64,000 bases of DNA from Carcharhinus amblyrhynchos (lineage: Eukaryota), in assembly GCA_965287045.1 (NCBI GenBank), contig OZ336875.1, forward strand, positions 74,710,001 to 74,774,000. The letters are read 5' to 3'. The position numbers and the translations under genes are program-made. The notes under the pieces were generated by a model, which was given only the letters and a program-made list of their open reading frames with translations, did not search any database and was not told the DNA's origin. Positions 9,515-43,107 of the stretch are shown in pieces (position 1 is the first letter of the stretch; the number at the start of each line of letters is the position of its first letter).

Positions 9515-9895
9515 TTACATAGAATCCCTACAGTGCAGAAGGAGGCCATTTGGTGCATCGAGTCTATCGACCACAGTCCCTCCCAGGCCCTACTCCTGTA
9601 ACCCCATGCATTTACCCTGTGAATTCCTCCTTGCACCAAGGGTCAATTTAACATGGCCAATCAAGCTAACCCACATATCTCTGGAGTGTGGGAGGACACT
9701 GCAGCACTGGAAGGAAACCCACACTGACACAGGGAGAATGTGCAAACTCCACACATGATGTGGGTATGCCGGCGTTGGACTGGCGTAAACACAGTAAAAA
9801 GTCTGACAACACCAGGTTGTAGACAGTGACCTGAGGCCGGAATTGAACCTGCGACCCTGGCATTATAAGGCAGCAGTGCTAACCACTGTGCTGTT
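9515..9895 (-). mobile_element. V-SINE with a Penelope pLTR fragment inserted at about 9755-9820
   Basis: The V-domain is split by atgatgtgggtatgccggcgttggactgg...caacaccagg. Confidence 0.8.
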
Positions 9896-9929
9896 TTGTC
9901 TGACTACATTTGTGAAATGACTTTGGGCT

Positions 9930-18740: not shown

Positions 18741-19567
18741 ATAAGTTAAGTTAAAAGAACAAAGAACAAGAAGTTGAACAAGGTCCTGTCGGGTGAAGTT
18801 AAGTAAAAGTAGAGAAGGTGCTCTGAGTTAAAGAGACAACTGCAGTAACCAGTTTTAATTTGAGAAGCCAGGTGCCTGCAGAAAATTAAAAGAATGGTGA
18901 CCTTTTAGTACAACTTGTGAAGGAGTGGTGTTCTGTTGGCTTGGCTGGGTACCTACAGGATAGGATAGAAGCTTGAGTGCAGCTGGCAATCCCATGTAGA
19001 GGAATGCTGAGAGGTTGAAATTCTGGATGTGGATCCTTGGTGAAGGTATTGCATCATAGTCAATCTTTTCAGATTTTATAAAGGTTTTATTATTTTGTTA
19101 AAAGTTGATTGGTAAGCTTGTGACTCTGCTGATCCATTTCTGTAAACAAAAATATAAAAGTTATGACCTATTGAGTCAGGGTTCCATTCTGAGACTTGAC
19201 TGTCCAGTGATTGCATCAGCTTGGGTTGTAACAATGTTCGATATTTAATCAGCGCATAGTTGCTCAGTGTTTGATTTTGTGAAGTGTTCAATGTAATGCC
19301 CTTACAGTAATTAATCTTCAGGTTAGGTTCTCACAGATCAAGACACCCCAGATAAAAAAAAGAATACCTGAGGGCCAAGAGTCACCCAAGATATAAGGAG
19401 ACCACTGTGCAGGTTAGGAAACATCAAACTCAGTATGTATGGCTGTTAAAAAGCATTGCCATTTTGGTAAAATTACTTGCCAGTTTATTAACCAGAGAAT
19501 TTAAAGTGAAAGAACAAGTCATTTGATAACTTTGTTCATGTGATGCAATCAAGCATTTTGCTCCAAA

Positions 19568-19645
19568 GTGAGAAGTCTCACAATACTAGGTTAAAGTCCA
19601 ACAGGGTTCCAGAGCTTCCAGAGCGTTGCTCCTTCGTCAGGTGAA
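19568..19645 (-). mobile_element. Short Penelope pLTR-derived insertion with degenerate hammerhead
   Basis: Reverse complement reads CACCTGACGAAGGAGCAACGCTCTGGAAGCT. TSD TGCTCCAAA at 19559 and 19646. Confidence 0.8.
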
Positions 19646-19702
19646 TGCTCCAAAATACAACAATTTACTTTCCCCTCCTTTCTAACATCTCCATAGTTAC
19701 TG

Positions 19703-19831
19703 TAAGAAGTCTCACAACACCAGGTTAAAGTCCAATAGCATTCCAAAAGTTTGTGATTCCAAATAAACCTGGTGATGTGAGACCTCTTACTGTGCCCACC
19801 CCAGTACAACACTGGCATCTCCACATCATGG
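19703..19831. mobile_element. Short Penelope pLTR-derived insertion (internally inverted)
   Basis: gtaagaagtctcacaacaccagg ... cctggtgatgtgagacctcttac. TSD CTCCATAG(T/C)TACTG at 19689 and 19832. Confidence 0.8.
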
Positions 19832-19871
19832 CTCCATAGCTACTGATAGCCTACTGATACTGCCCAACAAA

Positions 19872-20015
19872 GAGGTGTGTTACTGTGTACAGAGCCCATG
19901 TGGGTGTTGCTGAATACAGGGCCCATGTGGGTGTTACTGTATGTATACCAGGCAAGTGTTGCTGTCAACAGGGCCGAGATGGGTTTTGCTGATTGTATAC
20001 CCAAGAGGGTGTTGT
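19872..20015. repeat. Degenerate minisatellite with a unit of about 28-30 bp
   Basis: Recurrent GTGTT(A/G)CTG...ACAG(A/G)GCCCATGTGG units, about 5 copies. Confidence 0.7.
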
Positions 20016-20812
20016 TTAGTGGCTTGGACAGTGTTGCTGAATAAGTGACAAAGGTTCATCAATTTTAACTTGTAACTCTGGGAGTGAGAATTGAGGCGAG
20101 GCGAGATTTCTTTTTGTATAGAGTTGTTGAACCCTGAATGGATTGAATCATTAATACAGAGATGATTGCATTGTTTGACAGATAATTGAACAAAGAGTTG
20201 CAGCAGAGGTCTAAGGGGAGATGATAATGTAGTCGGATTGATTTAAATTTGCTTTAGCAAAGGTCTTTGTTTGTTTGGTAAATTAGCGGCAACGATGTAA
20301 AGTTCCTTGGATTGTTGGTTTGTTTTGGACAACACTCACAATTAACCCTGTCACCATCAAGCCTGTTGCTGCCTTCTCCATCACAATGTTAACTCAAAGC
20401 TAGTGGAGAGGTTCCAAGGTAATATTATTCATGTGCTGGCTTGTAACCAAGAAATAAATGCATCATCTCTGTGTCTGGCAGCACATTGAGGCAGTCTATG
20501 GAGGAGGAGACTTGGTGCACATATTAGATTTTGTATTTGTTGCCAATGATCGTGACATAATCAGCACCCCTCGTATTCGAAAGATGTCCCAAAACACTTT
20601 ACTTTAGCTTTACTTTTGACATATAGTGACTGCTACAATGTAGGAAATACTTACACAGCAAGATTCCATGAACACAAAAAAAAAGAAAAGCACAGCACAG
20701 GACCAGACTCTTCGGTCCTCCAAGCCTATGATGATCATGATGCCCTAACTAAAAAAAACTTTCTGCCCTTACTTGATCCATATCCCTCTATTTCCCGTGC
20801 TATTCATGTACC

Positions 20813-23800
20813 TCATTGTTCTCCGGAGCAGTGTACTGGTGGCTGGTGAGTGTAAACTGCGAGTGTACTGTTTTTTTCAAATTGCATTGCTAGGTCGCGG
20901 GGTTTTTTTTCCTTTTGTGCTTTCCGTAGTGGGTCCTAGGCGCAAGGGCTGTTGGGAAGGGAGCGAGGGAGTATAAAAACAAGGCCATAGTAGACAGCGG
21001 GTAGTGGAGTGAGGTGGGTGTTGAGTGAGTACTGCAAGGGCTTTGGTTCACAGGGCTTAGATGACAGCAGGCTTAGGCAAGGTGAGTTACTGGTCAAATT
21101 TTTCTAAGTGTGTCCATAGATCTAAGGGAAGTCAAATAAATGGCAGGGTCCATGGGGAGATGTGTCAGCTGTGTAAGGTGCAGTATGTGGGAGTTCCTGG
21201 AGACACAGCATCTCTGGACAGTCCACATCTGCACCAAATGTCTGGAGTTGCAGCTTTTGAGGGCCCGGGTTAGACAACTGGAGTTGAGGCTGGAGGATTT
21301 ATTTTTAGTTAGGGAAAATGAGGCACTAATGAATAGGAACCAGATTCAAGAGGGGATCCCAGAGCCAAGGAGGGGGGATGGGTGGGTTACAGTTAGGAAG
21401 GGGAAAAAGGAGAGGAGTAATGTTCCAAAGGCTACCCCAGGGGTAGTCTCTCAAGATAGCAGGGGTAAGGTGCCAACTGAGGTGGAAAGGGCATGAGGGG
21501 AAGAGGAAAATGCCTCAGAGGGAAGGAAGGGGGCTGGATGTGAGATAGTGGTGGGGGGTGGGAGGGTTAAAGGAATTGATAGGTGGTTCTGTGGGCAAAA
21601 GTGGGACTCCAGGATGGTAGTCTGCCTCCCTGGAGCAGGGGTACAGGATGTGTCGGAGAGGGTAAAGGGAATCTTGAAGGGCCAAGGGACCCAGGCGGAT
21701 GTAGTTATACATGTAGGAGAGAAGGACATAGGAAGGAAGAGTTGGGGGGGCAAATACGTACACAGTTCAGGAAGTTGGGAGCCAGGCTGAAGTGTAGGGC
21801 CTCCAGGGTGGTGATCTCTGGGCTGCTGCCAATGCCCAGCAATAGCAGGGATAAGAATAATGAGATCCTGCAGCTGAATGCGTGGCTGAGGGATTGGTGC
21901 AGGACAGAGAGTTTTAGTTTTGTTGACCATTGGGAAGTCTTTGCAAAGGAAGGGCACTTGTATAAGAGGGATAGGGAACACTTAAATGGGAAGGGTACAC
22001 ATATTTTAGCTGGGAGTCTGGCTGGAGTGTTTAGGCAGGGTTTAAACTAGTATGGGGGGCGGGGGGTGGTGGGGAGGAGAGAGACAGCTCAGGCACTGGG
22101 AGTGAGTTGGAGGTCAGGGTAAGTCTAGATGATAGGAAAATCCCCCTGGAGAAGGAGGATCCGAGAGGGCCTGAGGGTCTTAGGTGCATCTGTTTTAATG
22201 CGAGGAGTGTGACGGGAAAGTCGGATGAACTTAGGGCCTTGATGTTCGCGAGGAATTTAGATGTGGTGGCAGTGACAGAGACATGGTTAAAGGAGGGGCA
22301 GGACTGGCAGCTAAATATTCCAGGGTATAAGTGTTTTAGGCGTGATGGGGAGGGTTGAAAAGAGGAGGGGGAGTGGTGCTCTTAGTTAGGGAGAAGATCA
22401 CAGCGGTGCAGAGGGAGGATAACATGGAGGGGTTGGAAATTGAGTCTCTGTGGGTAGAGTTGAGGAATAGGAAGGGGGCCATTACTATGCTAGGAGTGTA
22501 CTATAGGCTGCCCGATAGCCCACGGGCAGTGGAAGAGAGTATATGTAGGGACATTTTGGATAAGTGTAGGAAGAACAGGGTTGTTGTAGTAGGAGATTTT
22601 AATCTCCCTGCGGTGGATTGGAAGGTGCCTAGAGCTGGGGGGGTCTGATGGGGAGGAATTTGTAAGATGTGTATTGGAAGGATCCTTGCAACAGTATGTA
22701 GATAGCCCGACTAGAGAGGGGGCTATACTGGATTTAGTTCTGGGAAATGAGCTGGGTCAGGTGGTTGAGGTTGCGGTAGGCGAACGTGTGGCTAATAGTG
22801 ACCACAACTCTGTCTACTTTAGGATACGAATGGAAAAAGACGAGAGCTGTCCTAAGGGGAGGGTGCTAAATTAGGGAAAGGCTAGATACAGCTGGATTAG
22901 GCAGGAGCTTAGGGATACAGACTGGGATAGGCTGTTGGAGGGCAAAACCACGTTAGGCATGTGGGAGTCTTTCAAGGGAAAACTGCAAAGGGTGCAGGAA
23001 AGGCATATGCCGGTTAGGAGAAAGGATGGGAAAGGTAGGATTAGGGAACCGTGGATTACTAGAGATATAGAAGACCTGGTTAGGAAGAAATGAGAGGTGT
23101 ATGTCAGGTCTAAGCAGCTGGGAACGGAGAGAGCGTTGGAGGAATACAGAGAGTAGGAGGGATCTCAAACGGGGAGTTAGGAGAGCAAAGAGGGGGCATG
23201 AGATGGCTTTGGCAGGTAGGGTTAAGGAGAATCCAAAGACGTTTTACTCCTATCTTAAGAACAAAAGGGTGGCTAGGGGTAAAATCGGTCCTCTCAGGGA
23301 CAGACGTAGGGAATTGTGCTTAGAGGCAGAGGGAATGGGGGAGATCCTGAATGAGTACTTTGCGTTGGTATTCACGAAGGAGAGGGGCTTGATGTCTGGT
23401 ACGGTCATTGAGGGAGCGGTAGACCAATTGAAAGATCTATCGATTACAAGGGAAGAAGTGTTAGGGCTTTTAGCTGGCATTAAAACCGATAAATCTCGGG
23501 GGCCCAATTGCATTTATCCTAGATTGCTTAGGGAGGCGAGGGATGAGATTGCTGGGCCTCTGACGCAAATCTTTGTCTCTTCTTTGGACACAGGTGAGGT
23601 CCCAGAGGACTGGAGGATAGCGAACGTGGTACCGTTGTTTAAAAAGGGTAGGAGGGATAGCCCAGGTAACTATAGGCCGGTGAGCTTAACGTCAGTGGTA
23701 GGTAAGTTGATGGAGAGGATTCTTAGGAATAGGATGTATGCACACTTAGAGCGTTGCGATCTGATTAAGGATACGCAGCATGGCTTTGTAAAGGGGAAGT

Positions 23801-25505
23801 CTTGCCTTAAGAATCTGACAGAATTCTTTGAGGAGGTGACAAAAACGGTCGACGAAGGATGAGCCGTTGATGTCGTCTATATGGATTTCAGTAAGGCGTT
23901 TGACAAAGTCCCTCATGGTAGGTTGGTACAGAAGATTAAAGCTCATGGGCTATGTGGTCAGCTATCTAGATGGGTAGAGAACTGGCTTGCAAAGAGGAGT
24001 CAGAGAATAGTAGTGGAGGGGTCCTTTTCTAGCTGGAGGTCTGTCACTAGTGGTGTGCCGCAGAGCTCAGTACTGGGACCTCTTCTCTTTGTAGTGTATA
24101 TAAATGATTTGGAAGAGGGAGTAGGTGGTGTGATCAGCAAATTTGCTGATGACACCAAGATGGCTGGATTGGTGGGCAGTGAGGAGCAGTGTCTGGCAAT
24201 ACAGCGGGATATTGATAGGCTGGTTGATTGGGCAGATACATGGCAAATGGAGTTTAATCTGGTTAAATGTGAGCTGATGCATCTTGGTCGGAATAATGTA
24301 GGGGGGGAGTTATATGATTAAGGGTAAGCCCGTAAGGAGTATAGAATCACAGCGAGACCTGGGGGTGCAAGTGCACAAGTCTTTGAAGGTGGCAGTGCAA
24401 GTGGAGAGTGTGGTGAAGAAAGCCTATGGTATGTCAGCCTTTATAGAAAGGGGTATAGAATATAAGAGCTGGAGTCTAATGTTGCAGTTGTACAGAACGT
24501 TGGTTAGGCCGCATTTAGAGTACTGTATCCAGTTCTGGTCGCCTTACTACTGGAAGGACGTGGAGACTCTGGAGAGAGTGCAGAGGAGGTTTACCAGGAT
24601 GTTGCCTGGTATGGAAGGACTAGGGTATGAGGAAAGATTGAATAAATTGGGGCTCTTTTCCCTTGAAAGACGCCGACTGAGGGGGGATCTAATAGAGGTA
24701 TATAAGATTATGAAGGGTATAGATAGAGTAAACAGAGGTAAGCTATTTCCTATGATAGAGACACGTAGGACGAGGGGCCATGGACTTAAGGTGAGGGGGG
24801 AGAGGTACAACACAGATATTAGAGGGAGGTTTTTCACACAGGGTAGTGGGGGTATGGAATGCTCTGCCAAGGTGGTGGAGGCAAACACACTAGAGTCATT
24901 TAAGAGTAACTTAGACAGGCACATGACTGAATTGGAGATGGGTGGATATCGGAGATTGTTTTAAATAAGGGTCATTAGCATTGGGGCGTCCCTGGTAATA
25001 TAAATGGATATGGTATGATAATAGTGTTTTTTCTCTTTTCAGTCACAGGTTTTAAGTCGGTCCGCCTCGTGTCCAACGAGGGGCATACACGCAATGGATC
25101 GTACTGGGGCTGCTCTTGGTTGTTCGAGATTGGCCTAGTGCTTCATGTCGTTAGCGTGTGCCTACACTGGACCAGATACTGGGCAAGACGACAGCTCAGT
25201 GACTATCGCTGATTGCTGTGCAGACACATGGATTTGGGCCGGTGTCTGTGGGAGTTTGCGCATTCTCCCTGTGCTTGCGTGGGTTTTCTCCGGGTGCTCA
25301 GGTTTCCTCCCACACCCCAAAGATGTGCTGTTAGGCTGATTGGCAGGAATAAATTGTCCCTAAATCAGATTCCCTCAATCTGGATGGCCATAAAACATTA
25401 GACAGGGGTCGTGGGTGGAGAGGGGGACTGGTGGTGTTGAGATGGCGGCGTGGGCTCGTTGGGCCGAAGGGCCTGTTTCCCGGGCTGATTTTGTTCTTTG
25501 TTCTT
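20813..25505 (+). mobile_element. Full-length CR1-clade LINE (disrupted) with V-SINE-derived 3' end
   Basis: 5'UTR, then ORF1 at 21140-22050 (Cys zinc finger, leucine zipper, SGNH esterase-like). ORF2 at about 22107-24964 has an AP endonuclease (VTETWL, GDFN, SDH) and RT (PQ.SVLGP, FADD) with several stops and frameshifts. TTTGTTC tail. Splits an older antisense CR1 tail, with a possible TACC duplication at 20809 and 25506. Confidence 0.95.
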
Positions 25506-25729
25506 TACCCGTCCAGATGCCTCTTAAATGTTACTAATGTGTCTATTTCCAACATCTCCTCTGGCAGTACGTTGAAGGCACCCACCACTCTGCGTGAAAA
25601 ATTTCCCCGCACATCTCCATTAATTTTTCCCCTTGAACCTGTGCCCCTTTGACACTTCCACCCTGGGAAAAATCCTCTGACTATCCACCCTGTCTATGCC
25701 TGTCATGACCCCATTGTGCAGAACTCCCA

Positions 25730-26460
25730 AAAATGGCTTCAGCTATCCACTTCCCCCTCATCCTATACTGGTTTCTGAGTGGTTGGCTGCAGGTGGTGTA
25801 AGTAGACCCTTCTTACTTCCCGCACCATCGCACAGGGCTGACACCACAACATAGTCTTCCCGTTCAGATATCTAACCAAGTATACCCCAGTCAGGCAGTA
25901 GAGGAACACCAAGTATAGAATGATGTTGAGGATGCAACATAATCACTTTGATTTTGCATTCTTAGGCACTAACTGAGACACTGACACTGCATATATTTTA
26001 GAGGATAGGTTATGAGGGACACATGGTGAGACCATAACGGGTGCAGGTGAGTTGCAGCCAGGGAGCAAAGACAGCACAAGGTGACAGCTTGCCAGAGATC
26101 TCATGCTATTTCTGCTACTGACATCTCAGATGAAGACTGAGTAGTCTAATGGAGTAGTCTAATTATCACCGATAGGAATGCAGAACAAAATGTTTGGTGC
26201 ATGGGCAAACCATATCATGAAGCAGGGAGAATCCCAGCACCAACTTGGCAGAGGACTTTGTACAGAGTCTGGAGGCCTCCTTCAAGGAGCAGTACATGGG
26301 GAAGGGAACACACTTAGAAGCTGATGAAATTCTGAAATAAAAGAGGATGAATCACCTTGGAGGTAAGGAAAGCAGAGTAGGGGAAGTGGAGCAATGGCCT
26401 GGAGGCAACATGGAGAGCTCTGCAGATGGAGAAGAATGTGATCCAGGGATAGGTTTCCCA
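25730..26460 (+). mobile_element. Possible remnant of the Harbinger second (Myb/SANT-like) gene
   Basis: Decayed coding-like sequence convergent with the transposase remnant. The assignment rests mainly on position. Confidence 0.3.
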
Positions 26461-27180
26461 CGCAACCTGCTTTGAAGTAGCCTGCCATTGGCCAGCGATG
26501 GGGGTCTCCTACTCCCACCGTTGTCAAAGGGGGTTCCCATTAAATGCATCCTTTGCCAATGTGAACCCTGCAGCAGAGGTGCACCATTGGCGAAACTGGT
26601 AGATCCCGCCAGCATGAATGGTTGGAAAGTTCCGGCTCCAGAGTCCGTGAGATCCGCACAAACTGTCCACTTGAAAGGACAGACCCCCATCTTTGTGACC
26701 TCCTGGAGACTCACTACTTGGGTGAACAATGGCATTTGGATCCTATCACGATGTAGTGTTCACTAACCAACATGGCAGCTTCAAGAGCAGCACAAGCGGC
26801 CGCTATCAGGTCTGAGTGCCGACAGTGTAAACTCACACTGCTGCCACCATGCCTGTGGATTAGAGTCCTCAAAGGGGTGGACACAGGGCGACTGATTAGA
26901 TTATTAGGATTGCTAGGGCACAGCCCTGTGGAATTGGCAGTGACTCCATGGGACATGAAGTCACTGTCCTCTCTCAGGCTGGCACCATTTGTCATCAAAC
27001 CTCTCATAATGGCAAGACTGTGCAACTTGCCATGCATATCTTGACACCCATGTGCAGAGCTCCTCCAGAACGGTCCAGACAGCTGAGGTCAGCACGCCAA
27101 AGATCTGTCCTGTCATATTTTGGGTGGTAAGATGGTTTCTATTGAATGCAAGCTATGCCTGTGTACCTCACCTGAGCCAT

Positions 27181-27915
27181 TACATAAGAACATAAGAAAT
27201 AGGAGCAGGAGTAGGCCATCTAGCCCTTCGAGCCTGCCCCGCCATTCAATAAGATCATGGCTGATCTGTCATGGCTCAGTTCCACATTCCCGCCCTCTCC
27301 CCATAACCCTTAATCCCCTCGCTTATCAAAAACCCATCAACCCGCGTCTTAAAAATATTTAGCAAGGCAGCCTCCACCACTTCAACAGGCAGAGAATTCC
27401 AGAGATTCACCACCCTTTGAGTGAAGAAGTTCCTCCTCAACTCTGTTCTAAACCGCCCCCCCTTTATCTTGAGGCTGTGCCCCCTAGTCCTACTGTCCTT
27501 TCTGAGCAGGAAGAATCTCTCCACCTCTATCCTATCCACCCCATTCATCATTTTATATGTCTCAATGAGATCTCCCCTCATTCTTCTAAACTCTAACAAG
27601 TACAAGCCTAGTTTATTCAGCCTCTCCTCCTAGCTCAACCCCCTCAACTCCGGTATCAGCCTAGTAAACCTCCTCTGCACTCCCTCCAAGGCCAAAATAT
27701 CCTTGCGTAAGTGCAGCGACCAAAACTGCACACAGTCCTCCAGCTGCGGCCTCACCAATGCCCTATACAGCTGCAGCAAGACCTCCCTACTTTTATATTC
27801 AATCCCCCTCGCTATGAAGGCCAGCATCCCATTCGCCTTCCTGACCACCTGCTGCACCTGCAGGCTGGGTTTTTGCGACTCATGCACAAGGACCCCGAGG
27901 TCCCTCTGCACCGTC
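27181..27915 (-). mobile_element. 5'-truncated copy of the second CR1 family
   Basis: Reverse complement closely matches 52610-53338. CATAAGAA tail at about 27181-27198. Confidence 0.93.
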
Positions 27916-28124
27916 ACCTGCTGCGTTAACCATGTTGGCTGCCCTTGTTGCCCACAAGCCACCTTTGGTTTGCCCTCATCTGCCACAAAAGAAAAGTTTC
28001 AGGACTGCTGTCAAGATACATGGAATTGACCTGCATGATTCTCTGCAATGGTCACACATCAGCTGAACATCAAGAAACTGGAGTCTCTTTTGGGTCAGTA
28101 CAGGGCATAGTTGACAAAGATATG

Positions 28125-29005
28125 TAGAGGGACAGATAATATCGAGGAAGCAAGGGGACTCCGGTAGGATGTAGACAGGTTAGGAGAGTGGGCAAAGAAG
28201 TGGCAGATGGAATACAATGTGGAAAAGTGTGAGGTTATGCACTTTGGAAGGAGGAATGGAGGCATAGACTTTTTTCTAAATGGGAAAATGCTGAGGAAAT
28301 CAGAAACACAAAGGGACTTGGAAGTCTTTGTTCAAAATTCTCTTAAGGCTAATGTGTAAGTTCAGTTGGCAGTTAGGAAGGCAAATGCAATGTTCACATT
28401 CATGTCGAGAGGGCTAGAATGCGAGAGTAGGGATGTACTTCTGAGGCTGTATAAGCTCTAGTCAGACCTCATTTGGAGTACTGTGAGCAGTTTTGGGTCC
28501 CACATGTAAGGAAGGATGTGCTGACCTTGGAAAGAGTCCAGAGGAGGTTCACATGAATGATCCCTGAAGTGAAGAGCTTGTTGCATGAGGAACGGTTGAG
28601 GATTCTGGGTCTGTACTCATTGGCTTTTAAGAGGATGAGGGGGGATCTTATTGAAACTTACAGATAATGTGAGGCCTGAATCGAGTGGATGTAGAGAGGA
28701 TGTTTCCACTAGTAAGAAAAACTAGAACCAGAGGGCACAACCTCAAGCTAAAGTGACAATCCTTTAAAACAGAGATGAGGAGGAATTTCTTCAGCCAGAG
28801 AGTGGTGAATCTGTGGAACTATTTGCTGCTGGAGGCCAGGTCATTGAGTGTCTTTAAGACAGAGATAGATAGGTTCTTGATTAATAAGGGGATCAGGGGT
28901 TATGGGGAAAAGGCAGGAGAATGGGGATGAGAAAAGAAATCAGCCATAATTGAATGGCAGAGCAGACCCAATAGGCTGAGTGGCCTAATTCTGCTCCTAT
29001 ATCTT
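28125..29005 (+). mobile_element. Older CR1 3' fragment
   Basis: Degenerate WQMEYN...HLEYC..W...LWNxL coding remnants followed by a CR1 3'UTR. Confidence 0.85.
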
Positions 29006-29849
29006 ACATGCAGTTTCTGCAAAGCAATGTGCATGCAGTTAATGGCATCCATCATTCTCAGAGAAGCCTACAATTATGTGATGTACTTCTCTGCCGGCTT
29101 GTGTGTGGCAAGAGAGAACGTAATTCAGGCTGCCCACAGACAGCAACAGTAATATGCAATGTTGGATGGAATACTGAGAGATGTTGCAAAGATCTTCAGC
29201 TCCAGCCTATTCCTCACCATGCACTTTTACACTTGTACCATGCTGCTTGCCCAGCTTTGAGGCTGCAGATGTGGCTGCAGCAGCTGGCAGATTTCAGTGA
29301 GGATGTCCTTACTAAAGCACGGATGTCTAACACATTGTTCCTTGCTGAATTTAGGTAGAAGGATTATTCTATCAATACAATTTGACCTTCTGCTGAGTAC
29401 TCTGCATTCTCTCTCCCCCTCCCTCTTCCAGCAGCTTGACCTGTTCTGCACAGGGTCTACTTTTACAGTCCTCCTGTATTTGTAAGGGGTGGGCTACAAA
29501 TGCACTGATGTTGGGGAGCAACTGGTTTGTGCGGAAGACTTGAAGTCAGCAAGTTGTCCTTCAGTATCTGCCACGACAATTCCTGCAGACTGTTTTCCAT
29601 TCAAAAAAAATTTAAAAGCACCAAACTCTTGTTGGAAACAGCTGGAAGGAATCAACCAGCAACTAACCTGACACCAGAAACCACCATGACTACCATCCCT
29701 GGGTATGCCCTGCCCCACCAGAGGAGGCACTCACTCGAGGTGGCAGCATAGTGGTGCACCTTTGAGAGGAGTAGTGCTAGGATTCCAGATCCAAAGAAGT
29801 TTATGACATCAGGTCAAGTTTGATGTAGACACTATCAACACTTCCCACT

Positions 29850-30162
29850 GTCTCAGAAAAGCCGTCAATATAATTAAGGACCCCATGCACCCCGGACATT
29901 CTCTCTTCCACCTTCTTCTGTCAGGACACGTACCAACAGACTTAAGAACAACTTCTTCCCTGCTGCCATCAGACATTTGAATGGACCTATCTCACATTAA
30001 GTTGATTTTTCTCTACTCCCTAGCTATGACTATAACACTGCATTCTGCACTCTCTCCTTTCCTTCTCTATGAACGGAATGCTTTGTCTGTCTTGCGTGCA
30101 AGAAATAATACTTTTCTCTGTATGTTAATACATGTGATAATAATAAATCAAATCAAATCAAA
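29850..30162 (+). mobile_element. Rex-Babar-like LINE 3' end
   Basis: IIKDPMHPGHSLFHLL...TNRLKNNFFPAAIR remnant with an (AATCA)n tail. Confidence 0.7.
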
Positions 30163-31431
30163 AAGGTTAAATATGTTGAGCATCAACCAGAAAATCTTTT
30201 TAAATACACCAATGACTGGTAGTAACAGAGAGAGAGAGACTCCTGGTCAACCACACTTGATGTGCAATGACACCCCTCAAGCCATAAACCTCTGGCAACA
30301 GACTTGCAACCTGTTCTGGGAATTACTAGCCAAGGAACCAGACAAAAGTCTGCCTTAATACACTGGGCAGTGACATACTGATGCCTCTTTCTGGCAAATA
30401 TCATTCTTTATAGAGTCAACTGGATATGCACTTCAAGGTACAAAGATTTGAGGGCTATAGGGACAAAAGCAGCAGAGTGCGACTCATTGGATAACTCTAG
30501 CTTTCAAATGAATCAAATAACCCTCTGTGTTGGACCATTTCTCAATTGTTAACAAGATATCCATCTGTAATGCAAAAAGAAGCTGTATTTATACCATCGT
30601 TATGAAGCAAGGCTAAGGTACAAGGCCAGATAAATTGATGTTAGTTAAAGGATAAAGGTCATCACGAAAAGCTCACTCTCTATTCTTTGAGGGATCAACC
30701 AGAGAGAGCAGACAGGCATCTCTGACAGTACAGCACTCCCTCAGTACTACAGGGGAATATGACCCTAGGTTTCTGCAGTGGGACTTGACCCTGTAACCTT
30801 CTAACTTGGAGGACAGTCATCAACTGAGTCAAGACTGATAAGGACGAACATTAATGAGCCATAGGACATAGAACCATTAAATGTTCCCTTTTTGCGACTC
30901 TTTCTCCCTTTTTTAAAAAAAATTGCCATTTACTTGTTGCAAGCTGCCTGGGATTTGTAAATTTTCCTATCCCTTGATGGATTTTGCAGTCTGCAGATTT
31001 ATCAAGAAGAAATCTGTGTTTAAAGTTAATTTACATAAGGACTGCTTTATAAATGTAGGTTTTTTGCCTCCATCATGTGTGTGCAAACAAAAAACCTTTT
31101 CATTTTTTGTTCAAAATTTTTCTTTGAGTTTTCAAGCAGAATTTCCTTTTCAAATGTCCTCCTGGGGATTTGCAGGAGGAATAACGTATGCTGTGCAAAT
31201 TATATCCATTAGCATGTCAGGAATTGTAAAACATAACTGAACTACATTTCTAAATTCTCAGGTTATAGCAAGTTCACATTCTTCACTGAGTAGCATCAAG
31301 GGATCTTTTACATTCACCTACGAGGACAGATGGGGCCTTGGTTCAATGTCTATGACCAGTCAGGGTTTCCACAATTCTTCCTGGAACTTGGCGATTTGTA
31401 TTTGATAAAGTACTTTCTTGAGGTGGAGTGA

Positions 31432-33046
31432 CATTTGACAAAGTCCCTCATGGTAGGCTGGTAGAAAAGATTAAGGCTCATGGGATACGTGGCCAGGTAT
31501 CTAGATGGGTTGAGAACTGGCTGGCTAAGAGGAGACAGAGAGTAGTAGTGGAGGGGTCCTTTTCTAGCTGGAGGTCTGTCACTAGTGGTGTGCCGCAGGG
31601 CTCAGTACTGGGACCTCTTCTCTTTGTAGTGTATATAAATGACTTGGAAGAGGGAGTAAGTGGTATGATCAGCAAATTTGCTGATGACACCAAGATGGCT
31701 GGATTGGCGGGCAGTGAGGAGCAGTGTCTGGCAATACAATGGGATATTGATAGGCTGGTATATTGGGCAGATACATGGCAAATGGAGTTTAATCTGGATA
31801 AATGTGAGGTGATGCATTTTGGCCAGAATAATGTAGGGGGGAGTTATATGATTAAGGGTAAGCCCATAAGGAGTATAGAATCACAGCAAGACCTGGGGGT
31901 GCAAGTGCACAAGTCTTTGAAGGTGGCAGTGCAAGTGGAGAAGGTTGTGAAGAAGGCCTATGGTATGTTAGCCTTTATAGGAAGGGGTATAGAATATAAG
32001 AGCTGGAGTCTAATGTTGCAGTTGTATAGAACGTTGGTTAGGCTGCATTTGGAGTACTGCATCCAGTTCTGGTAGCCTTACTACCGGAAGGACGTGGAGA
32101 CTCTGGAGAGAGTGCAGAGGAGGTTTACCAGGATGTTGCCTGGTATGGAAGGACTGGGGTATGAGGACAGATTGAAGAAATTGGGGCTCTTTTCCCTTGA
32201 AAGATGGCGACTGAGGGGGGATCTAATAGAGGTATATAAGATTATGAAGGGTATAGATAGAGTAAACAGAGGTAAGCTATTTCCTATGGTAGAGACACAT
32301 AGTACAACGGGCCATGGGCTTAAGGTGAGGGGCGAGAGGTATAACACAGATATTAGAGGGAGGTTTTTCACACAGAGGGTAGCGGGGGTATGGAATGCTC
32401 TGCCAAGTAAGGTGGTGGAGGCAAGCACGCTAGAGTTGTTTAAGAGTAACTTAGACAGGCACGTGACTGGGTTGGAGATGGGTGGATTTAGGAGATTGTT
32501 TTAAATAAGGTTCATTAGCATTGGGGCATCCCTGATAAGGTAAATGGATATGGTATGATAATAATGTTTTTTCTCTTTTCATTCACAGGTTTTAAGTCGG
32601 TCCACCTTGTTGCCCAACGAGGAGCATACACGCGATGGGTCGTACTTGGGCTGCTCTTGGTTGTTCGAGATTGGCCCAGTGCTTCATGTTGTTAGTGTGT
32701 GCTTAAACTGGACCAGATACTGGGCAAGACGACAGCTCAGTGACTATCGCTGATTGCTGTGCAGACGCATGGATTTGGGCCGGTGTCTGTGGGAGTTTGT
32801 GCATTCTCCCCATGCTTGCGTGGGTTTTCTCCGGGTGCTCCGGTTTCCTCCCATACCCCAAAGATGTGCTATTAGTCTGACTGGCAGTAATAAATTGTCC
32901 CTAAATTAGTTTCCCTCAATGTGGATGGCCATAAAACAATAGATAAGGGTCATGAGTGGAGGGGTGGACTGGTAGTGTTAAAATGGCAGCGTGGGCTCGT
33001 TGGGCCGAAGGGCCTGTTTCCCGGGCTGTTTTGTTCTTTGTTCTTT
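31432..33046 (+). mobile_element. 5'-truncated copy of the same CR1 family
   Basis: RT region and 3' end nearly identical to 23897-25505. Confidence 0.95.
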
Positions 33047-33089
33047 GGGGCGGTGGGCTTGAGTTGAGCTTTCAAGCTTGAGCTTGACT

Positions 33090-33124
33090 CACCTGATGAA
33101 GGAGCAGCGCTCCGAAAGCTCGTG
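33090..33124 (+). ncRNA. Minimal type I hammerhead ribozyme (Penelope-associated)
   Basis: CAC-CTGATGA-A-GGAGC agc GCTCC-GAA-AGCT-C-GTG: intact core with a short stem I. Confidence 0.75.
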
Positions 33125-33931
33125 CTACCAATGTTGTGAGACTTCTTACTGTGTCCGCCCCAGTCCAATGCTGGTATTTCCACATCATGAGTGCGGAATG
33201 GTCCGCTTCGAAACCCATGCCCAAGAATCAAGATGGCACCTCTGGCAGTGCAGCACTCCGTCATTAGTACACTGCAGTATCAGTCTAGAATGTGTACTCA
33301 AGCGTCTAGGGCAGGATTTGAATCTTCACCTTATGACTCAGGCTGAAAGCACAACTGACTTAGCTATTTGCATTACGTTTAATGACTGATTTTCAGTCTC
33401 TTCTGCTGTCTCCAGCCTAATCATCAAGGTCTTTCTAAGTGCATTTCATTAGTATACCCAGAATCCCAGAAATTCTGAGTGTGGTGTATCTCTGAAGCTA
33501 AGCTCAGTTACAAGGGTGTACATCCAATCTCTGGGAGTGCAAGATATTGCATATATAAAAAAGATGCTCCAGTTTTCAGGGTCTAAAGGTCCAATTAACA
33601 AACAAGTCTTTGGAGCAGAATGTGAGGCATCTATCTGCAGGTATTCCAAAAGCCTAGTTTCCCCAGTCTTGGTTTCCTATTCTATTTCCTCATAGCTCTC
33701 CCCTACACAGACCCAAGATTTCAATATTTCCCTTATACGGATCAGAGCTAGATAGGACTCAACAGAGAGAACTGAAAGAAAGATGTTCATTTCTATAGCA
33801 CCTTTCACTACCTCAGGGCATTCCATGAGCACTTTACAGCCAATTATTTATTTTTGAAGTTTAGTCACGGCTGTAATTTAGGAAACATGGCCACCAATTC
33901 ACAAACAGCAAGGCCACAAACAACAAAAACA

Positions 33932-34142
33932 AAAAGAAAACACTGAGGATGTTGGAAATCTGAAATCAAAACAAAAAGTGCTGAGAAATGCAACAAGTCT
34001 AGCAGCATCTGTGGAAAGAGAAACACTTCAAGTCCATATGATTCTTCTTTAGTGCTCTAAAGAAATCATACAGACTCGAAATGTTCACTTCGTTGTTCTC
34101 TCCACAGACTTGCTGAGTTTATCCAGCATTTTCGGTTTTGAT
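33932..34142. repeat. Fold-back (palindromic) element of the second pLTR family
   Basis: Imperfect inverted arms centred at about 34053, homologous to 5165-5290 and 56555-56640. Confidence 0.7.
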
Positions 34143-34487
34143 CTGAGTTGAATAATGACCAAGTAACCTGTTCTAGTGATGCAAAATGAACTAGATTAGG
34201 GCAGCTCCCTTACTCTTCTTCAAAGTAGGATCTTTTACATGCACTTCAGGCAGTGGAGAGGCCTCAGTTTATCAATTCATTTGATAAACAGTGCCTGCGG
34301 CAGTGCAGCATTCCCTCAGTACTGCACTGAAGTGTCAGCCTAGATTTTTTCCCTCTGATTTAGAGGCAACAGTGTGAACAACTGAGCCACAGCAGGAAGT
34401 GTGGGGGAGTTTATAAAGATCAGTGGAACACCAGGAAAGACTAAAAATCACATTCCAACACATTCTTTGTATTCTACACCAGAACAT

Positions 34488-35730
34488 TAGCACAGTGGTT
34501 AGCACTATTGCTTCACAGCTCCAAGGACCTCACTTCGATTCCTGGCTTGTGTGGAGTTTGCACAGTAAGAATACCAGGTTAAAGCCCAACAGGTTCATTT
34601 GGTAGCAAAATCCACTAGCTTTTGGAGCACTGCTCCTTCAGGTACTTGGGAGTTCTGTTCACAAACAAAGAATATAAAGACACAAACTCAATTTGCAAAA
34701 TAATGGTTGGAATGCGAGTTTTTACAGGTAATCAAGTCTTAAAGGTACAGATAATGTGAGTGGAGAGAGCGTTAAGTGCAGGTTACAGAGATGTGCATTG
34801 TCTCCAGACAGGACAGTAAGTGAGACTTTGCAAGCCCAGGCAAGTCATGGGGGTTACAGATAGTGTGACATGAACTCAAGATCCCAGTTGAGGCCATCCT
34901 CATGTGTGCGGAACTTGGCCATCAGTCTCTACTTAGCAACTCTGCATTGTCGTATGTTGTGAAGGCCGCCTTGGAGAACGCTTACCCAAAGATCAGAGGC
35001 CGAATGCCTGTGACCGCTGAAGTGTTCCCCAACAGGAAGAGAACACTCTTGCCTGCTGATTGTCCAGCGGTGTTCATTCATCTGTTGTTGTAGCGTTTAC
35101 ATGGTCTCCCCAATGTACCATGCCTTGGGACATCCTTTCCTGCAGTGTATCAGGTAGACAACATTGGCCGAGTTGCAAGAATATGTACCATGTACCTGGT
35201 GGATGGTATTCTCACGTGAGATGATGGCATCCATGTTGATGATCCGGCATGTCTTGCAGAGATTGTTGTGGCAGGGTTGTGTAGTGTCGTGGTCACTGAT
35301 CTCCTGAAGGCTGGGTAGTTTGCTGCAGACAATGGTCTGTTTGAGGTTGTGAGGTTCTTTGAAGGCAAGAAGTGGGGGTATGAGATGGCCTTGGCGAGAT
35401 GTTCGTCTCATCAATGACATGTTGAAGGCTCCGGAGAAGATGTCGTAGCTTCTCCGCTCTGAGAATTTCTCCGCTGTGGAGTTCGTATATTCTCCTCGTA
35501 TTTGGGTGGGTTTCCTCTGGGTGCTCTGGTTTCCTTCCACAGTCCAAAGACTTGCGGATTAGGTTGATTGGCCATGCTAAAAATTGCCCTTAGTGTCCTG
35601 AGATGTGTAGGTTAGAGGGATTAGTAGGTAAATATGTAGGGATATGGGGGTAAGGCATAGTTGGGATTTGTGGTCGGTGCAGATTCAATGGGCCAACGGC
35701 CTCTTTCTGTACTGTAGGCTTTCTACTGAT
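34488..35730 (+). mobile_element. V-SINE split by the Penelope insertion
   Basis: Head at 34488-34562, V-domain and tail at 35475-35730. Confidence 0.8.
34563..35474 (-). mobile_element. Penelope-like element 3' fragment (GIY-YIG endonuclease plus pLTR)
   Basis: PPLLAFK..NL...PC...CKTC....SC.SANVVYLIHCRKGCPKAWYIGET...PVGEHF...DGLN, ending at about 34854. Followed by a pLTR with a degenerate hammerhead (34612-34645). Flanked by tgtggagtttgca / tgtggagttcgta inside a V-SINE. Confidence 0.9.
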
Positions 35731-35915
35731 TCTAATTGGAGCTGGATTTTTACCTTCTGTTCTTTCCTACTCGCAGCTGAAATTTTGATTATGATGCACA
35801 TACGTTGTTAAATATGTTCTGGTTGTTAACCTGAAATCATGTGTGTAGATTTCAAGGTGGAATATCCCACACGAAAATGAGGACAAGCAGAAAGTGCCAC
35901 TATTTTAGAGATTTA

Positions 35916-36900
35916 GGGCAGAATTTTAGGAGAATGATTCTAGGTGTCCAGCTAGCGTGAAAATAGGAGTTGCAGATCTGTTAATTGGGCAAGTTTTTAC
36001 ATCCAATCTTGAGAAAATAGTACATGAAAAAATTGACTAGACCATTTCTAGCTGCGACAGGCAGTGGACAGAGCTTAATTCATCAGTCAGCAGCAGAGGG
36101 AGCTATTGCGCATGTGCAGACCTATAACGCTGCAAATATGCAGTAACAACAGCAGACGACTGACAGAAAGAGAGAGCTGTCAGGCCTCAGCTTTTGGAGC
36201 CAGCCTCAACCAACTCCCATCCCCTGCAATTGTGGGGGTGCCACAGCCAATTGTGAGCCCCTCGCTGCCCGCAAATGTAGCCCCCTCCACCCATCCTACC
36301 AGCCAGACTGATTGCACCACTCCACTAACTGTAGGCAGAGGGGCCCCTCCTCCCTCACCCCACTGATCACAGGCGGAGCAGCAGTGGATCCCTCTTCCGT
36401 CACCCCACCGATTGCAGGCAGAGTGGCAGAGAACCCCTCTCTCTCCCCAGTAGTGCTGCCCTGGTCTGGCCCTGCCCTTCAGTCTCTGTCCCATGTAGAC
36501 CCCACACTTCAGTCCCCACCCTGATAGGTCACACCCATGGCACTACCCAGTGGGTAGTGCTGAGGTGCTAGGCTGGCAGTGCCAAATGGGCACTAACCAA
36601 AAATCACCCCTCTTGTCCTCAGCTTTCTTGGGGGGGCCTCAATGGCCTCCAGTTCTACCGGCAAGGCCAACACAACTGTTCCTTTGGGGAAGCAGGTGTT
36701 TTCCTTGCAGGAGAGAACTTTCCTGGCGAGGCTATAAAGGCAAGTAAGCCCGGATGATTGAGCGCCAAGCATGCTAGTCACATGCTAAAGATGTTTGATA
36801 CATATTTAACTAATTTATTCAGCCTCTTGCTAGAATTCCAGCCTCCGTAAGATGACAAGAGCTGAGAGGTCAGGTGCGGCAAACAGGTAAAATTCCACCC
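35916..36900. mobile_element. Non-autonomous DNA transposon (probable Harbinger-type MITE)
   Basis: Termini GGGCAGAATTTTA ... TAAAATTCCACCC with TTA/ATA flanks and a GC-rich interior. Confidence 0.55.
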
Positions 36901-36959
36901 ATAACTTTTTTTTCCCCATCCCCAGAAAAGTATATGGTCCCAGGAATTACACTTCAAGA

Positions 36960-37275
36960 ACTATAGAATCCCTACAGTGGAAAAGGAAGCCATTCAGCCT
37001 ATCAAGTCTGCACTGACTGTCTAAAAGGCCTATCCCAATAACCCCCTGTATTTACCATGGCTAATCCACCTAACTGACACACCTTGGAATATTAACGTAC
37101 ATTCCAATCTACCTAACCTGCATATTTTTGGGCCGTGGGAGGAAGCCAGAACATCTGGAGGAAACCCATGGACACATGGGGAGAACGTGTAAACTCCACA
37201 CAGACCCAAGGCTGGAATTGAACCCAGGTCCCTGGCACTGTAAGGCAGCAGCTCCAACCATTGTGCCACCGAGCC
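36960..37275 (-). mobile_element. V-SINE (HE1-like)
   Basis: Full head, V-domain and tail on the reverse strand. Confidence 0.8.
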
Positions 37276-38818
37276 GCTGAACAGCTGTGAAGCGCTTTGT
37301 GCTGAGGTTGTAGAGAACGCTTTACAAATGCAAAGTTTGCTATTACTGCGACACACCCTGAGATTTCAGGCTTTGTCCAACTGGGTGTTCTTCACAGGGC
37401 TTCTGGCGGGCTGTTTGACTTTAGGTGCGGCATGGCCAAATCCAATCTTGTTAATTACCCAAGATGCTGTTAACTTTTCACCTGGGATCAGCCAGCTACC
37501 CAAGGAACCCGAATGGATTTCTCCTATCCCTGGTTCGAGGGTGGTGTGGCCAGTTGGAACATGCCAGCAAACACTCTGGCTGGGATCGGTTCAGTTAGGA
37601 CTCACCAAAATTCTTTGCCTGACTTCGATGAGGCTGTCCTGCTGTGCTATGTTCAGTTGCCAACACACGAGTGTACCATTCCATTCTCACCACCTCTGCC
37701 CACTCCCTCCGCACTCAATCCCCCAACAATGTTAACACCTGCTGGCTGATTGGAATATTTTCATGAATCCCTGAGTGTGTTGTGTCAGGAATATTGGGGT
37801 GGGATAATCTCCAGCACCAAAGAATGTCAGAACGCTGGTCACCCACTGAGGAAAGCGAAGTTGTCCTGGAGAGGGAGGGAAGGGGATAGTAAGAGAGGGA
37901 AGATCAGCCAGAGAATGTTTATTAGAGCATCTCCTCATTGTGTGACCAGAATGTAGCTTAGGTGATCCAGTTACATTGTGAAGCCCCCCTCTTATTATCC
38001 TCCTATACTCCTATAATCCTCCTCCAATATCTTATCAGGGAGAAGGCAGGAGAATGGGTATGAGACTCATATCAGCCATGATTGAATGGCAGAGCAAAGT
38101 CAATGGGCCCAATGGCCTAATTCTGCTCCAAATCTTATTGTCTTAATGGTGAATGCAGGCCTGTTTGATTCTTGTTCATGGGCCTCCAGTATCTTTAATG
38201 TTGTTTGGCCATGTGACCCATAGAAGGCCTGGGCTCATGTATAACACCAGGACCTTGTGGCCTTGGAAGGAGTGTGCATAATGCCATTCAGCTGCTAATC
38301 AGTTCAGGAATCCTTCCACCATTTCCCCACTATTTCCCTAAAGGTAAAAAACAGTGCGAGCGGGAAGATACATTAAAAAACTTTGACCCATAGGTTGACT
38401 TCAAGGTCTCCCGCTTTTATCCCATTTCAGGGACTGGAAGGGTTAAACTATAAGGGCAAGTTGCGTAGATTAAGATTATTCCTTAAGAATAAAGTATAAA
38501 GGTGATTTAAGTGTATAGATAATTAAAGAATTTGATAGACAGAGAGAAACTTTTTCTCTTTAGTGGGAAAGTCCAGAACTAGGGAACATAAATTTAAAAT
38601 CAGAGCAAAGCCATTCAAGGGTAATATGAGGAGACACGTTTTCTCATAAAGAGATACTGGAAATGTGGAACTTCTCCTCAAAAAGCTGTTGAGACAGCAA
38701 ACTGAGATTGTTAGATTTTTTTTGTTAAGTAAGGGAAGTTAGGGAACAGAGTGGAGTTGAGATAACTGAATGGTAATTGGATTTGAGAATCTGAATAACT
38801 CTGCCTGTGGAGCAAACA

Positions 38819-38992
38819 TGATGTGGAGATGCCGGCGTTGGACTGGGGTAATGGAGTCCAATGCCGGCATCTCCACATCATGTTCTGGCCAGAACTCTCC
38901 ATTCACCTGACGAAGAGGTTAACCTCGAAAGCTTGTGAGTTTACTATCAAATAAATTGGTTGGACTTAAACCTAGTGTTGTCAGACTTCTTA
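38819..38992 (+). mobile_element. Short Penelope pLTR-derived insertion with inverted duplication
   Basis: 30-bp hairpin arms (38815-38844 and 38855-38884), a hammerhead, and a 14-bp direct repeat CTGTGGAGCAAACA at 38805 and 38993. Confidence 0.85.
38901..38940 (+). ncRNA. Minimal type I hammerhead ribozyme (Penelope-associated)
   Basis: ATTCAC-CTGACGA-A-GAGGTTAACCTC-GAA-AGCT-T-GTGAGT: intact core, 6-bp stem I (one G-U pair), stem II and a palindromic minimal helix III. Confidence 0.8.
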
Positions 38993-39220
38993 CTGTGGAG
39001 CAAACACCCAACGCCACACTATCAGGCAATAGCTTTACTTCTGCAAGAGTTATTTTCTCTTCTTTAGTTCCCTTGAAAGAAAGAATTTGATACATTTTGA
39101 ACAACAAAACGTACTATATGCAATTTTGGTTTTGTAGTTAGCTAATAATTGATTAACAAATACATCACTTCAATTAATCCCTGGCTTCGGCGTGGGAGCA
39201 TTGTTTTTTGGAGGGTAATA

Positions 39221-41131: not shown

Positions 41132-43107
41132 AAGGCTGCTTAGGGAGGCGAGAGATGAGATTGCTGGGCCTCTGACGCAAATCTTTGTCTCTTCTTTGGA
41201 CACAGGTGAAGTCCCAGAGGACTGGAGGATAGCGAACGTGGTACCGTTGTTTAGAAAGGGTAGGAGGGATAACCCTGGTAACTATAGGCCGGTGAGTTTA
41301 ACGTCAGTGGTAGGCAAGTTGATGGAGAGGATTCTTAGGGATAGGATGTATGAGCATTTAGAGCGTTGCGATCTGATTAGGAATATGCAGCATGGCTTTG
41401 TAAAGGGGAAGTCTTGCCTTACGAATCTGGTACAATTTTTTGAGGAGGTGACAAAAATGGTCGACGAAGGACGAGCCGTTGGTGTCGTCTATATGGATTT
41501 CAGTAAGGCGTTTGACAAAGTCCCTCATGGTAGGTTGGTAGAGAAGATTAAAGCTCATGGGATATGTGGTCAGCTATCAAGGTGGGTAGAGAACTGGCTT
41601 GCAAAGAGGAGTCAGAGAGTAGTAGTGGAGGGGTCCTTTTCTAGCTGGAGGTCTGTTACTAATGGTGTGCCGCAGGGCTCAGTACTGGGACCTCTTCTCT
41701 TTGTAGTGTATATAAATGATTTGGAAGAGGGAGTAGGTGGTGTGATCAGCAAATTTGCTGATGACACCAAGATGGCTGGATTGGCGGGCAGTGAGGAGCA
41801 GTGTCTGGCAATACAACGGGATATTGATAGGCTGGTATATTGGGCAAATGGCAAATGGAGTTTAATCTGGATAAATGTGAGGTGATGCATTTTGGCCAGA
41901 ATAATGTAGGGGGGAGTTATATGATTAAGGGTAAGCCCATAAAGAGTATAGAAACGCAGCGAGACCTGGGGGTGCAAGTGCACAAGTCTTTGAAGGTGGC
42001 AGTGCAAGTGGAGAGTGAGGTGAAGAAAGCCTATGGTATGTTAGCCTTCATAGGAAGGGGTACAGAATATAAGAGCTGGAGTCTAATGTTGCAGTTGTAC
42101 AGAACGTTGGTTAGACCGCATTTAGAGTACTGCGTCCAGTTCTGGTTGCCTTACTACCAGAAGGACGTGGAGACTCTGGAGAGAGCGCAGAGGAGGTTTA
42201 CCAGGATGTTGCCTGGTATGGAAGGACTGGGGTATGAGGAGAGATTGAATAAATTGGGGCTCTTTTCCCTTGAAAGACGACGACTGAGAGGGGATCTAAT
42301 AGAGTTATATAAGATTATGAAAGGTATAGATAGAGTAAACAGAGGTAAGCTATTTCCTATGATAGAGACACACAGGACAAGGGGCCATGGGCTTAAGGTG
42401 AGGGGCAAGAGGTATAACACAGATATTGGAGGGAGGTTTTTCACACAGAGGGTAGTGGGGGTATGGAATGCTCTGCCAAGTAAGGTGGTGGAGGCAAACA
42501 TGCTAGAGTTGTTTAAGAGTAACTTAGACAGGCACATGAGTGGGTTGGAGATGGGTGGATATAGGAGATTGTTTAAATAAGCATTGGGGCGTCCCTGGTA
42601 AGGTAAATGGATATGGTACAATAATAATGTTTTTTTTCTCTTTTAATTCACAGGTTTTAAGTCGGTCCGCCTTGTGTCCAACGAGGGGCATACACGCAAT
42701 GGGTCGTACTTGGGCTGCTCTTGGTTGTTCGAGACTGGCCTAGTGCTTCATGTCGTTAGTGTGTGCTTAAACTGGACCAGATACTGGGCAAGACGACAGC
42801 TCAGTGACTATCGCTGATTGCTGTGCAGACACATGGATTTGGGCCGGTGTCTGTGGGAGTTTGCGCATTCTCACCGTGCTTGCGTGGGTTTTCTCCGGGT
42901 GCTCCGGTTTCCTCCCACACCCCAAAGATGTGCTGTTAGGCTGATTGGCAGGAATAAATTGTCCCTAAATTAGTTTCCCTCAATGTGGATGGCCATAAAA
43001 CATTAGATAAGGGTCATGGGTAGAGGCGGTGACTGGTGGTGTTAAGATGGCGGCGTGGGCTCATTGGGCAGAAGGGCCTGTTTCCCGGGCTGTTTTTGTT
43101 CTTTGTT
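41132..43107 (+). mobile_element. 5'-truncated copy of the same CR1 family
   Basis: ORFs 41100-41885 and 41840-42580 encode RT with one frameshift. Same composite 3' end as the other two copies. Confidence 0.95.

Follow-up and report, generated by a model that had tools for sequence, protein, structure and literature searches.

Insertion sites of a Penelope-like element in Carcharhinus amblyrhynchos tend to carry a mirrored CAG motif

A stretch of 64,000 nucleotides of Carcharhinus amblyrhynchos DNA (assembly GCA_965287045.1, contig OZ336875.1, positions 74,710,001 to 74,774,000), called the window here, holds several insertions of a Penelope-like element (PLE). One family accounts for sites A to E and for a further copy at 33090. 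The word CTCCA or its complement TGGAG is present in five of these six copies, and a sequence-only reading of the window attributed it to a sequence-preferring GIY-YIG endonuclease or to homology-primed integration. Does this family choose its targets by sequence and, if so, by which sequence? We found that it tends to insert at the mirror-symmetric target CTG-NN^12–13 nt^NN-CAG (^ marks a nick), the 12–13 bases between the nicks being duplicated. We put the probability of this reading, together with its likely origin in nicks made by the element's endonuclease, at about 0.78.

The element and its mirrored target

The copy at locus L329 (G000:C5:27899500-27906200) has an open reading frame (ORF) of 916 amino acids with a reverse transcriptase (RT; Pfam RVT_1, E 1e-09) and an RYIDD motif. 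A Pfam search of this 916-residue query gave no GIY-YIG match. PF01541 is carried by several relatives of the protein, and the GIY-YIG-type domain residues Y794, C798, C802, Y807, G809, R818, H822, H838, and E868 are kept in 47–49 of 50 aligned proteins. A linker, C755-X4-C760-xx-C763, lies between the RT and the endonuclease and is found in 48 of the 50. The closest named relatives are shark proteins with 81–86% identity, and turtles and invertebrates carry relatives too; a structure look-up found no solved relative of the nuclease region. Judged by its protein, the element is an endonuclease-bearing PLE. The linker would place it with the Neptune/Nematis type as defined in the part of PMC8557442 consulted. 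A young subfamily with open frames of more than 900 amino acids is present.

Insertions consist of pseudo-long terminal repeat (pLTR) arms with or without a tail. At L329 (and also at L080, L108, and L185) the tail runs up to the ATG of the 916-residue ORF, which puts the start of the tail-side cDNA no more than about 5 nt from that codon. A hammerhead-like core, CTGA(T/C)GA...GAAA, is visible in the pLTR; an Rfam search gave no hammerhead match. Among 298 insertions, in a sampling that favoured the tail, 158 combine a tail arm with a tail-less arm, 2 have two tail arms, and the others are truncated or different. The two-armed young copies are of the tail plus tail-less type in 27 of 28 cases.

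Loci were gathered with four tail or body patterns plus 100 kb on the flanks of the window, and duplications were called by script (strict: score of at least 9, length 9–18 bp). The first collection kept 233 of 238 element blocks; 227 lie outside the window, and 103 have a strict duplication (68 discovery and 35 validation sites). A hold-out collection, for which the prediction was written down before the test, kept 71 of 72 blocks, 38 with a strict duplication. The young set, 40 loci picked by protein search, gave 43 blocks: 28 strict, 12 without a duplication, and 3 cut by an edge. Near-duplicate flanks (5, then 1), window sites, and blocks without a strict duplication were dropped before counting. 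Some element copies close to the beginning of contig C1 (L004-L007, L091/L092/L095/L097, and L121/L122/L126) lie inside larger blocks that are themselves duplicated, and they were excluded as duplicates. Loci L201-L253, picked via an anchor in a short interspersed element (SINE), were used for the hot spot only. Genome-wide counts refer to the 16,301 places in the 2.9-Gb genome where a 16-nt tail word occurs exactly, with expectations from 237 kb of flank.

CAG stands two bases past the end of the duplication (bases 3–5) on both strands. The counts for the tail strand and the opposite strand are 25 and 24 of 68 discovery sites, 21 and 8 of 35 validation sites, 14 and 10 of 38 hold-out sites, and 14 and 17 of 28 sites of the youngest subfamily. 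Over all 169 sites, CAG is found at this offset on the tail strand in 74, on the opposite strand in 59, on either in 100, and on both in 33, against a background of 2.0%. Eight clusters of repeat-shared positions hold 23 of the 169 sites, and collapsing them left the result unchanged (68 and 51 of 154). The runner-up triplet is CAT (21 of 282 half-sites). The two N positions vary (CC, GC, GT, AG, GA, AC), and the commonest half-site 5-mer is CACAG (15 of 282).

The spacing is narrow. Where both half-sites are CAG or CAT (44 sites), the duplication is 12 bp long in 28, 13 bp in 14, 11 bp in 1, and 14 bp in 1. In 72 of 169 sites the duplication lies within CTG-N16/17-CAG, a pattern that occurs about once per kb across 164 kb of local sequence. 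CTG was also counted independently of called duplications, at a distance of exactly 13 nt ahead of the tail word; it stands there at 1,844 of the 16,301 ends versus 355 expected. A search of openly readable literature, mostly at the level of listings, found no spaced palindromic target for any PLE; the part of a 2026 retrozyme preprint consulted (10.64898/2026.07.22.740005) holds nothing on PLE targets.

As for CTCCA/TGGAG, the sites, their four duplications, and the words themselves are real. However, the two words together lie 0–12 nt before the tail at 713 genomic ends versus 721 expected, and CTCCA/TGGAG is therefore not a target preference. CTCCA alone is low (279 versus 361 expected). 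TGGAG alone is mildly high (434 versus 361), which speaks for the word, as does its presence in most window copies. Duplications contain either word in 3 of 141 cases versus 4.3 expected (44th of 432 pentamer classes), or in 4 of 169 with the young set included. Across four widths around the 141 sites the counts are 3, 8, 10, and 12 versus 4.3, 6.9, 10.1, and 13.3 expected, the second pair being the duplication ±3 nt. The strand of the word and its distance relative to the element vary among sites A to E. In random draws of four real sites, some 5-mer is common to three of the four in 2% (duplication only) to 8% (±3 nt). We consider it extremely improbable that the endonuclease prefers CTCCA/TGGAG, or that the element's TGTGGAG end pairs with it, with SINEs favoured. 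A sequence preference as such, the more general part of the sequence-only reading, is very likely, with another motif.

Window insertions and the SINE hot spot

The insertions and their host sequences, in window positions, are as follows.

9556..9754, minus strand: host SINE, V-domain side, left of site E.
9755..9820, minus strand: site E, young 66-nt insertion after AAACTCCACAC, at the strong SINE nick (CTCCACACA^GACAG), no duplication.
9821..9906, minus strand: host SINE, head side, right of site E.
19559..19567, plus strand: site A, left target duplication TGCTCCAAA, 9 bp; fits the CAG half-site model poorly, scoring at the 16th percentile of real sites.
19568..19645, minus strand: site A, single tail-less, 5'-truncated pLTR arm.
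19646..19654, plus strand: site A, right target duplication.
19689..19702, plus strand: site B, left target duplication, 14 bp including microhomology; poor model fit (4th percentile of real sites).
19703..19831, unstranded: site B, two inverted pLTR arms, the left tail-less, the right with tail.
19832..19845, plus strand: site B, right target duplication, one mismatch to the left copy.
33089..33190, plus strand: single pLTR arm with tail and hammerhead-like core (the 33090 copy).
34479..34549, plus strand: host SINE 5' part left of site D; 12 nt absent versus other copies, including the CTG half-site.
34550..34562, plus strand: site D, left duplication, 13 bp; its junction is the weaker of the two hot-spot nicks in the SINE, just before CACAT.
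34563..35474, minus strand: site D, element truncated at its 5' end; it keeps a tail-less pLTR and, from the ORF, the linker and GIY-YIG end, both decayed.
35475..35487, plus strand: site D, right duplication, 11 of 13 matching; the remaining SINE runs to about 35694.
38800..38818, plus strand: site C, CTG half-site and left duplication (CTG-CC ^ TGTGGAGCAAACA ^ CC-CAA); good fit (93rd percentile).
38819..38992, unstranded: site C, tail arm and inverted tail-less arm.
38993..39011, plus strand: site C, right duplication and right half-site (CCCAA).

The duplication of site C is itself 14 bp long and exact (38805-38818 and 38993-39006). At 38819-38881, ahead of the second arm, the tail is followed by a 5-nt spacer and its own inverted copy, which makes a short palindrome. 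The 33090 copy has no duplication at a score of at least 6 and, as the sequence-only reading had it, no CTCCA/TGGAG word.

Sites D and E share one SINE position, E at the nick of one strand and D at the nick of the other. Site E is identical to the youngest subfamily at 65 of 66 nt. Beside site D the SINE shows a 12-nt deletion, and the site as it now reads stands at the 9th percentile of real sites. Two hot-spot hits in one window are an uncommon coincidence with a single cause.

The host repeat of D and E, a 320-nt family, is presumably a V-SINE (a SINE with a tRNA-derived head and a conserved V domain), as the sequence-only reading called it. Its profile was built from 51 copies. Within 45 nt of the SINE anchor there are 23 tail junctions, of which 15 fall at one position (0.48 expected per position) and are identical to the junction of site E. 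Five further junctions lie 4 nt beyond, four within the SINE and one outside any SINE; the four are probably the same nick with extra tail bases. Tail-less ends cluster at the same place in the opposite orientation (among the 57 matches listed, with 30 loci fetched). Elements at the 23 loci range from 78 to 413 nt with differing far ends. Because their lengths differ, these are separate events, and a single amplified SINE-element chimera was ruled out. The claim that two insertions had hit the same V-domain position is borne out as a recurrent hot spot.

When a half-site matrix was trained on 141 sites that do not include the hot spot, the hot-spot nick came 1st on its own strand and the two-sided site 4th along the SINE profile. 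The hot spot reads CTG-TC^13 nt^CA-CAT, with CTCCA inside the spacer. This position is likely hot because of its match to the CAG half-site motif, and CTCCA is likely a passenger.

The sequence-only reading also expected abundant SINEs to be preferred landing sites, and the counts disagree. V-SINEs hold 7 of 141 sites (5.0%) versus 7.0% of nearby sequence and 3.1% of the 164 kb around the window, and the 46-nt V-SINE stretch has 23 junctions versus about 22 expected for 46 positions. A count of V-SINEs at left junctions only (9 rows for 298) was less sensitive and was set aside. With 15 of the 16,301 tail ends at the anchored position, in one orientation, the element was rejected as a repeat-targeting (site-specific) retrotransposon. 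Independent insertions of different length share positions in other repeats as well (L008/L265/L338, L011/L071/L337, L093/L331/L352, and L158/L162/L330); these repeats are probably LINE-derived (long interspersed element).

Nicking, priming and rival explanations

How could such a target be cut and filled? In the mechanism that we propose, the element's GIY-YIG endonuclease, probably acting as a dimer, would make a nick in each strand 2 nt 5' of a CAG or, less commonly, a CAT, the two nicks being staggered by 12–13 nt. The two 3' overhangs would take up the two inverted arms. The tail arm would arise by target-primed reverse transcription. This would begin no more than about 5 nt from the start codon of the ORF, on a template base selected for pairing with the final 1–3 bases of the primer. 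The tail-less arm would arise by second priming or by fold-back copying of the first cDNA.

Among junctions whose nick is fixed by CAG or CAT, those that share at least 1 nt with the element number 51 of 67 on the tail side and 40 of 47 on the tail-less side, against about 28% under the null; the microhomology is mostly 1–3 nt long. Of homology-primed integration as suggested by the sequence-only reading, short microhomology as an aid to priming is retained, but pairing with the element's TGTGGAG is unsupported. The two arms of one insertion share their subfamily at four diagnostic sites (48/48, 54/56, 50/54, and 54/55). The two arms of a young copy match each other at about 99.7% (the median, as read from 26 values), compared with 98.66% between copies. 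Arm identity and shared subfamily point to one template source, by fold-back or second priming. Arm lengths differ by at most 10 nt in 6 of 27 young copies. Young insertions at L326-L363 are long near-perfect palindromes of up to about 6 kb, with 100% identity over 2 kb in several arms. Such identity and near-equal lengths would be expected of fold-back copying. Simple fold-back of the tail arm does not suffice by itself: the tail-less arm reaches further in 53 of 120 cases, the tail arm does so in 31, and in 36 the two are within 5 nt of each other. At L001 (1531-1560), as in all copies, the tail-less start reads CACAG, and the most distant ends of tail-less arms lie just ahead of CCCAG on the sense strand. 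Both resemble ^NNCAG, and the nuclease might trim the element's own intermediate.

We infer that the CAG motif is read by the endonuclease, because it lies 3' of each proposed nick, beyond the duplication and on the side unable to prime, and because it shows the same strength at the tail junction, although the element carries no CAG there. The same two observations weaken the idea that CAG reflects pairing of the target with the element's CACAG/CTGTG end. The tail-less arm does start with the commonest half-site 5-mer, junction microhomology is above chance, and up to 5 nt are common to element and target at the SINE hot spot. But the two N positions are free to differ, and the microhomology is mostly of 1–3 nt. 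We regard such homology-directed choice as quite improbable, and sequence-preferring staggered nicking by the element's own enzyme as highly probable.

Whether one protein or two make the nicks is less clear-cut. A monomer could nick at ^NNCAG, and the same nuclease domain, tethered through the RT, could then nick the second strand 12–13 nt off. This, too, would leave one and the same motif on the two strands, with a limited range of spacings, and the second end does vary at the SINE hot spot. I-TevI, a homing endonuclease of the GIY-YIG type, makes its double-strand cut as a monomer. According to the part of PMC12774661 consulted, it cuts both strands at CNNNG, a short and tolerant motif whose position is set by a separate binding site. 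Yet the half-sites are similarly strong on both strands (74 and 59 of 169; young 14 and 17 of 28). The isolated Drosophila virilis domain is reported unable to cut both strands, whereas the full-length anole protein PAc does (PMC11167929, in part). A homodimer is, moreover, predicted for residues 1–345 with a score of 0.47 against 0.00 for the best of three controls (contact agreement at least 32%, partner predicted local distance difference test score, pLDDT, at least 59), with a helix at residues 42–80 as the interface. In microbes, 21 of 30 solved one-chain pairs and none of 23 single chains reached the mark for a dimer; in eukaryotes the figures are 17 of 29 and 0 of 30. A dimer seems somewhat the better bet than one monomer nicking twice, which we think rather unlikely, though a fair rival.

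Several points weigh against the mirrored target and its reading by a dimer. The preference is loose, with CAG at the fixed offset on neither strand in 69 of 169 sites, and window sites A and B fit poorly. Strict duplications were called in 169 of 341 non-window blocks, so the two-sided statistics cover only this half or so, and the empty sites were deduced from duplications, not observed in a second genome. CACAG at the start of the tail-less arm may give homology a share at that junction. At the SINE hot spot one nick is fixed and the other end of the duplication varies by about 9 nt, which suits two partly independent nicks. The dimer model is of moderate confidence, covers the N-terminal third only, and leaves the nuclease domains unplaced; without an older solved relative, the dimer mark was reached by only 1 of 7. 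Finally, the CAG motif is not family-wide, because PAc prefers ATT (PMC11167929, in part).

A broader reading, which we offer tentatively and hold to be somewhat less probable than its negation, is that Neptune-type proteins integrate as a loose homodimeric restriction enzyme. One dimer would read CTG-N16/17-CAG and make both nicks 12–13 nt apart in one complex, and one RNA would give a hairpin-derived inverted insertion with exactly one tail.

Known systems and significance

The closest biochemical comparison is PAc (Poseidon) from the green anole, a predicted dimer that in vitro makes nicks in both strands and extends them (Frangieh et al. 2024, PMC11167929; this and the following sources were consulted in part). 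It shares with the shark element an RT with C-terminal GIY-YIG domain, two element ends about 35 nt apart that bound the tail, and a predicted N-terminal helical homodimer. However, PAc prefers ATT in AT-rich DNA, whereas the half-site here is ^NNCAG. The start of PAc cDNA is reported as non-homologous to the cut DNA, whereas the junctions here share 1–3 nt, and its tail ends more than 100 nt inside the ORF, unlike the tail here, which ends at the start codon. The main-text parts covered give no duplication length or nick spacing to set against 12–13 nt (PMC11167929).

Neptune and Nematis elements (Craig et al. 2021, PMC8557442) share the CX2-5CxxC linker before the GIY-YIG domain, CCHH, an inverted truncated arm, and a 30–40-bp tail at one end. 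Their bias is to microsatellites, for which mediation by the linker was hypothesised in Neptune; here it is to a spaced palindrome in ordinary sequence, though our duplication calling would miss microsatellite sites. Inverted arms, one-sided tails, and microsatellite bias of PLEs had been described before (PMC8557442, PMC9977147). Penelope elements of Adineta vaga likewise have an inverted pLTR shorter than the full one, an optional tail, and short duplications, and self-priming was proposed for their palindromic junctions (Arkhipova et al. 2013, PMC3846280). There, the duplications are of 8–10 bp in single cases, and no target motif was found in the text covered. In I-TevI and I-BmoI the GIY-YIG domain also reads a short tolerant cleavage motif, with a conserved G downstream of the cut (PMC12774661). 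Their cuts lie 2 nt apart in one 5-bp motif with a separate long binding site, whereas the shark element has two 3-nt half-sites 16–17 nt apart.

Mechanistic work on target choice and the second nick of PLEs was called for by Craig et al. 2021 (PMC8557442). The mirrored 3-nt half-sites supply an exact substrate and a spacing series for dimeric double nicking, and the homodimer reading, if true, would define the missing second-strand step of Penelope retrotransposition. The CAG rule explains recurrent hits at particular positions of SINEs and other repeats without those repeats being targeted, and it helps annotators to place element boundaries.

The window contains two further sets of repeats. 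Three block copies of about 1.6–2 kb with about 93% identity, each ending in a SINE copy, lie at 23525-25507, 31434-33046, and 41137-43112; they are either a local duplication or a SINE-LINE composite. An inverted pair of a 743-bp repeat fragment lies at 27182-27924 and 52602-53335, with 94% identity.

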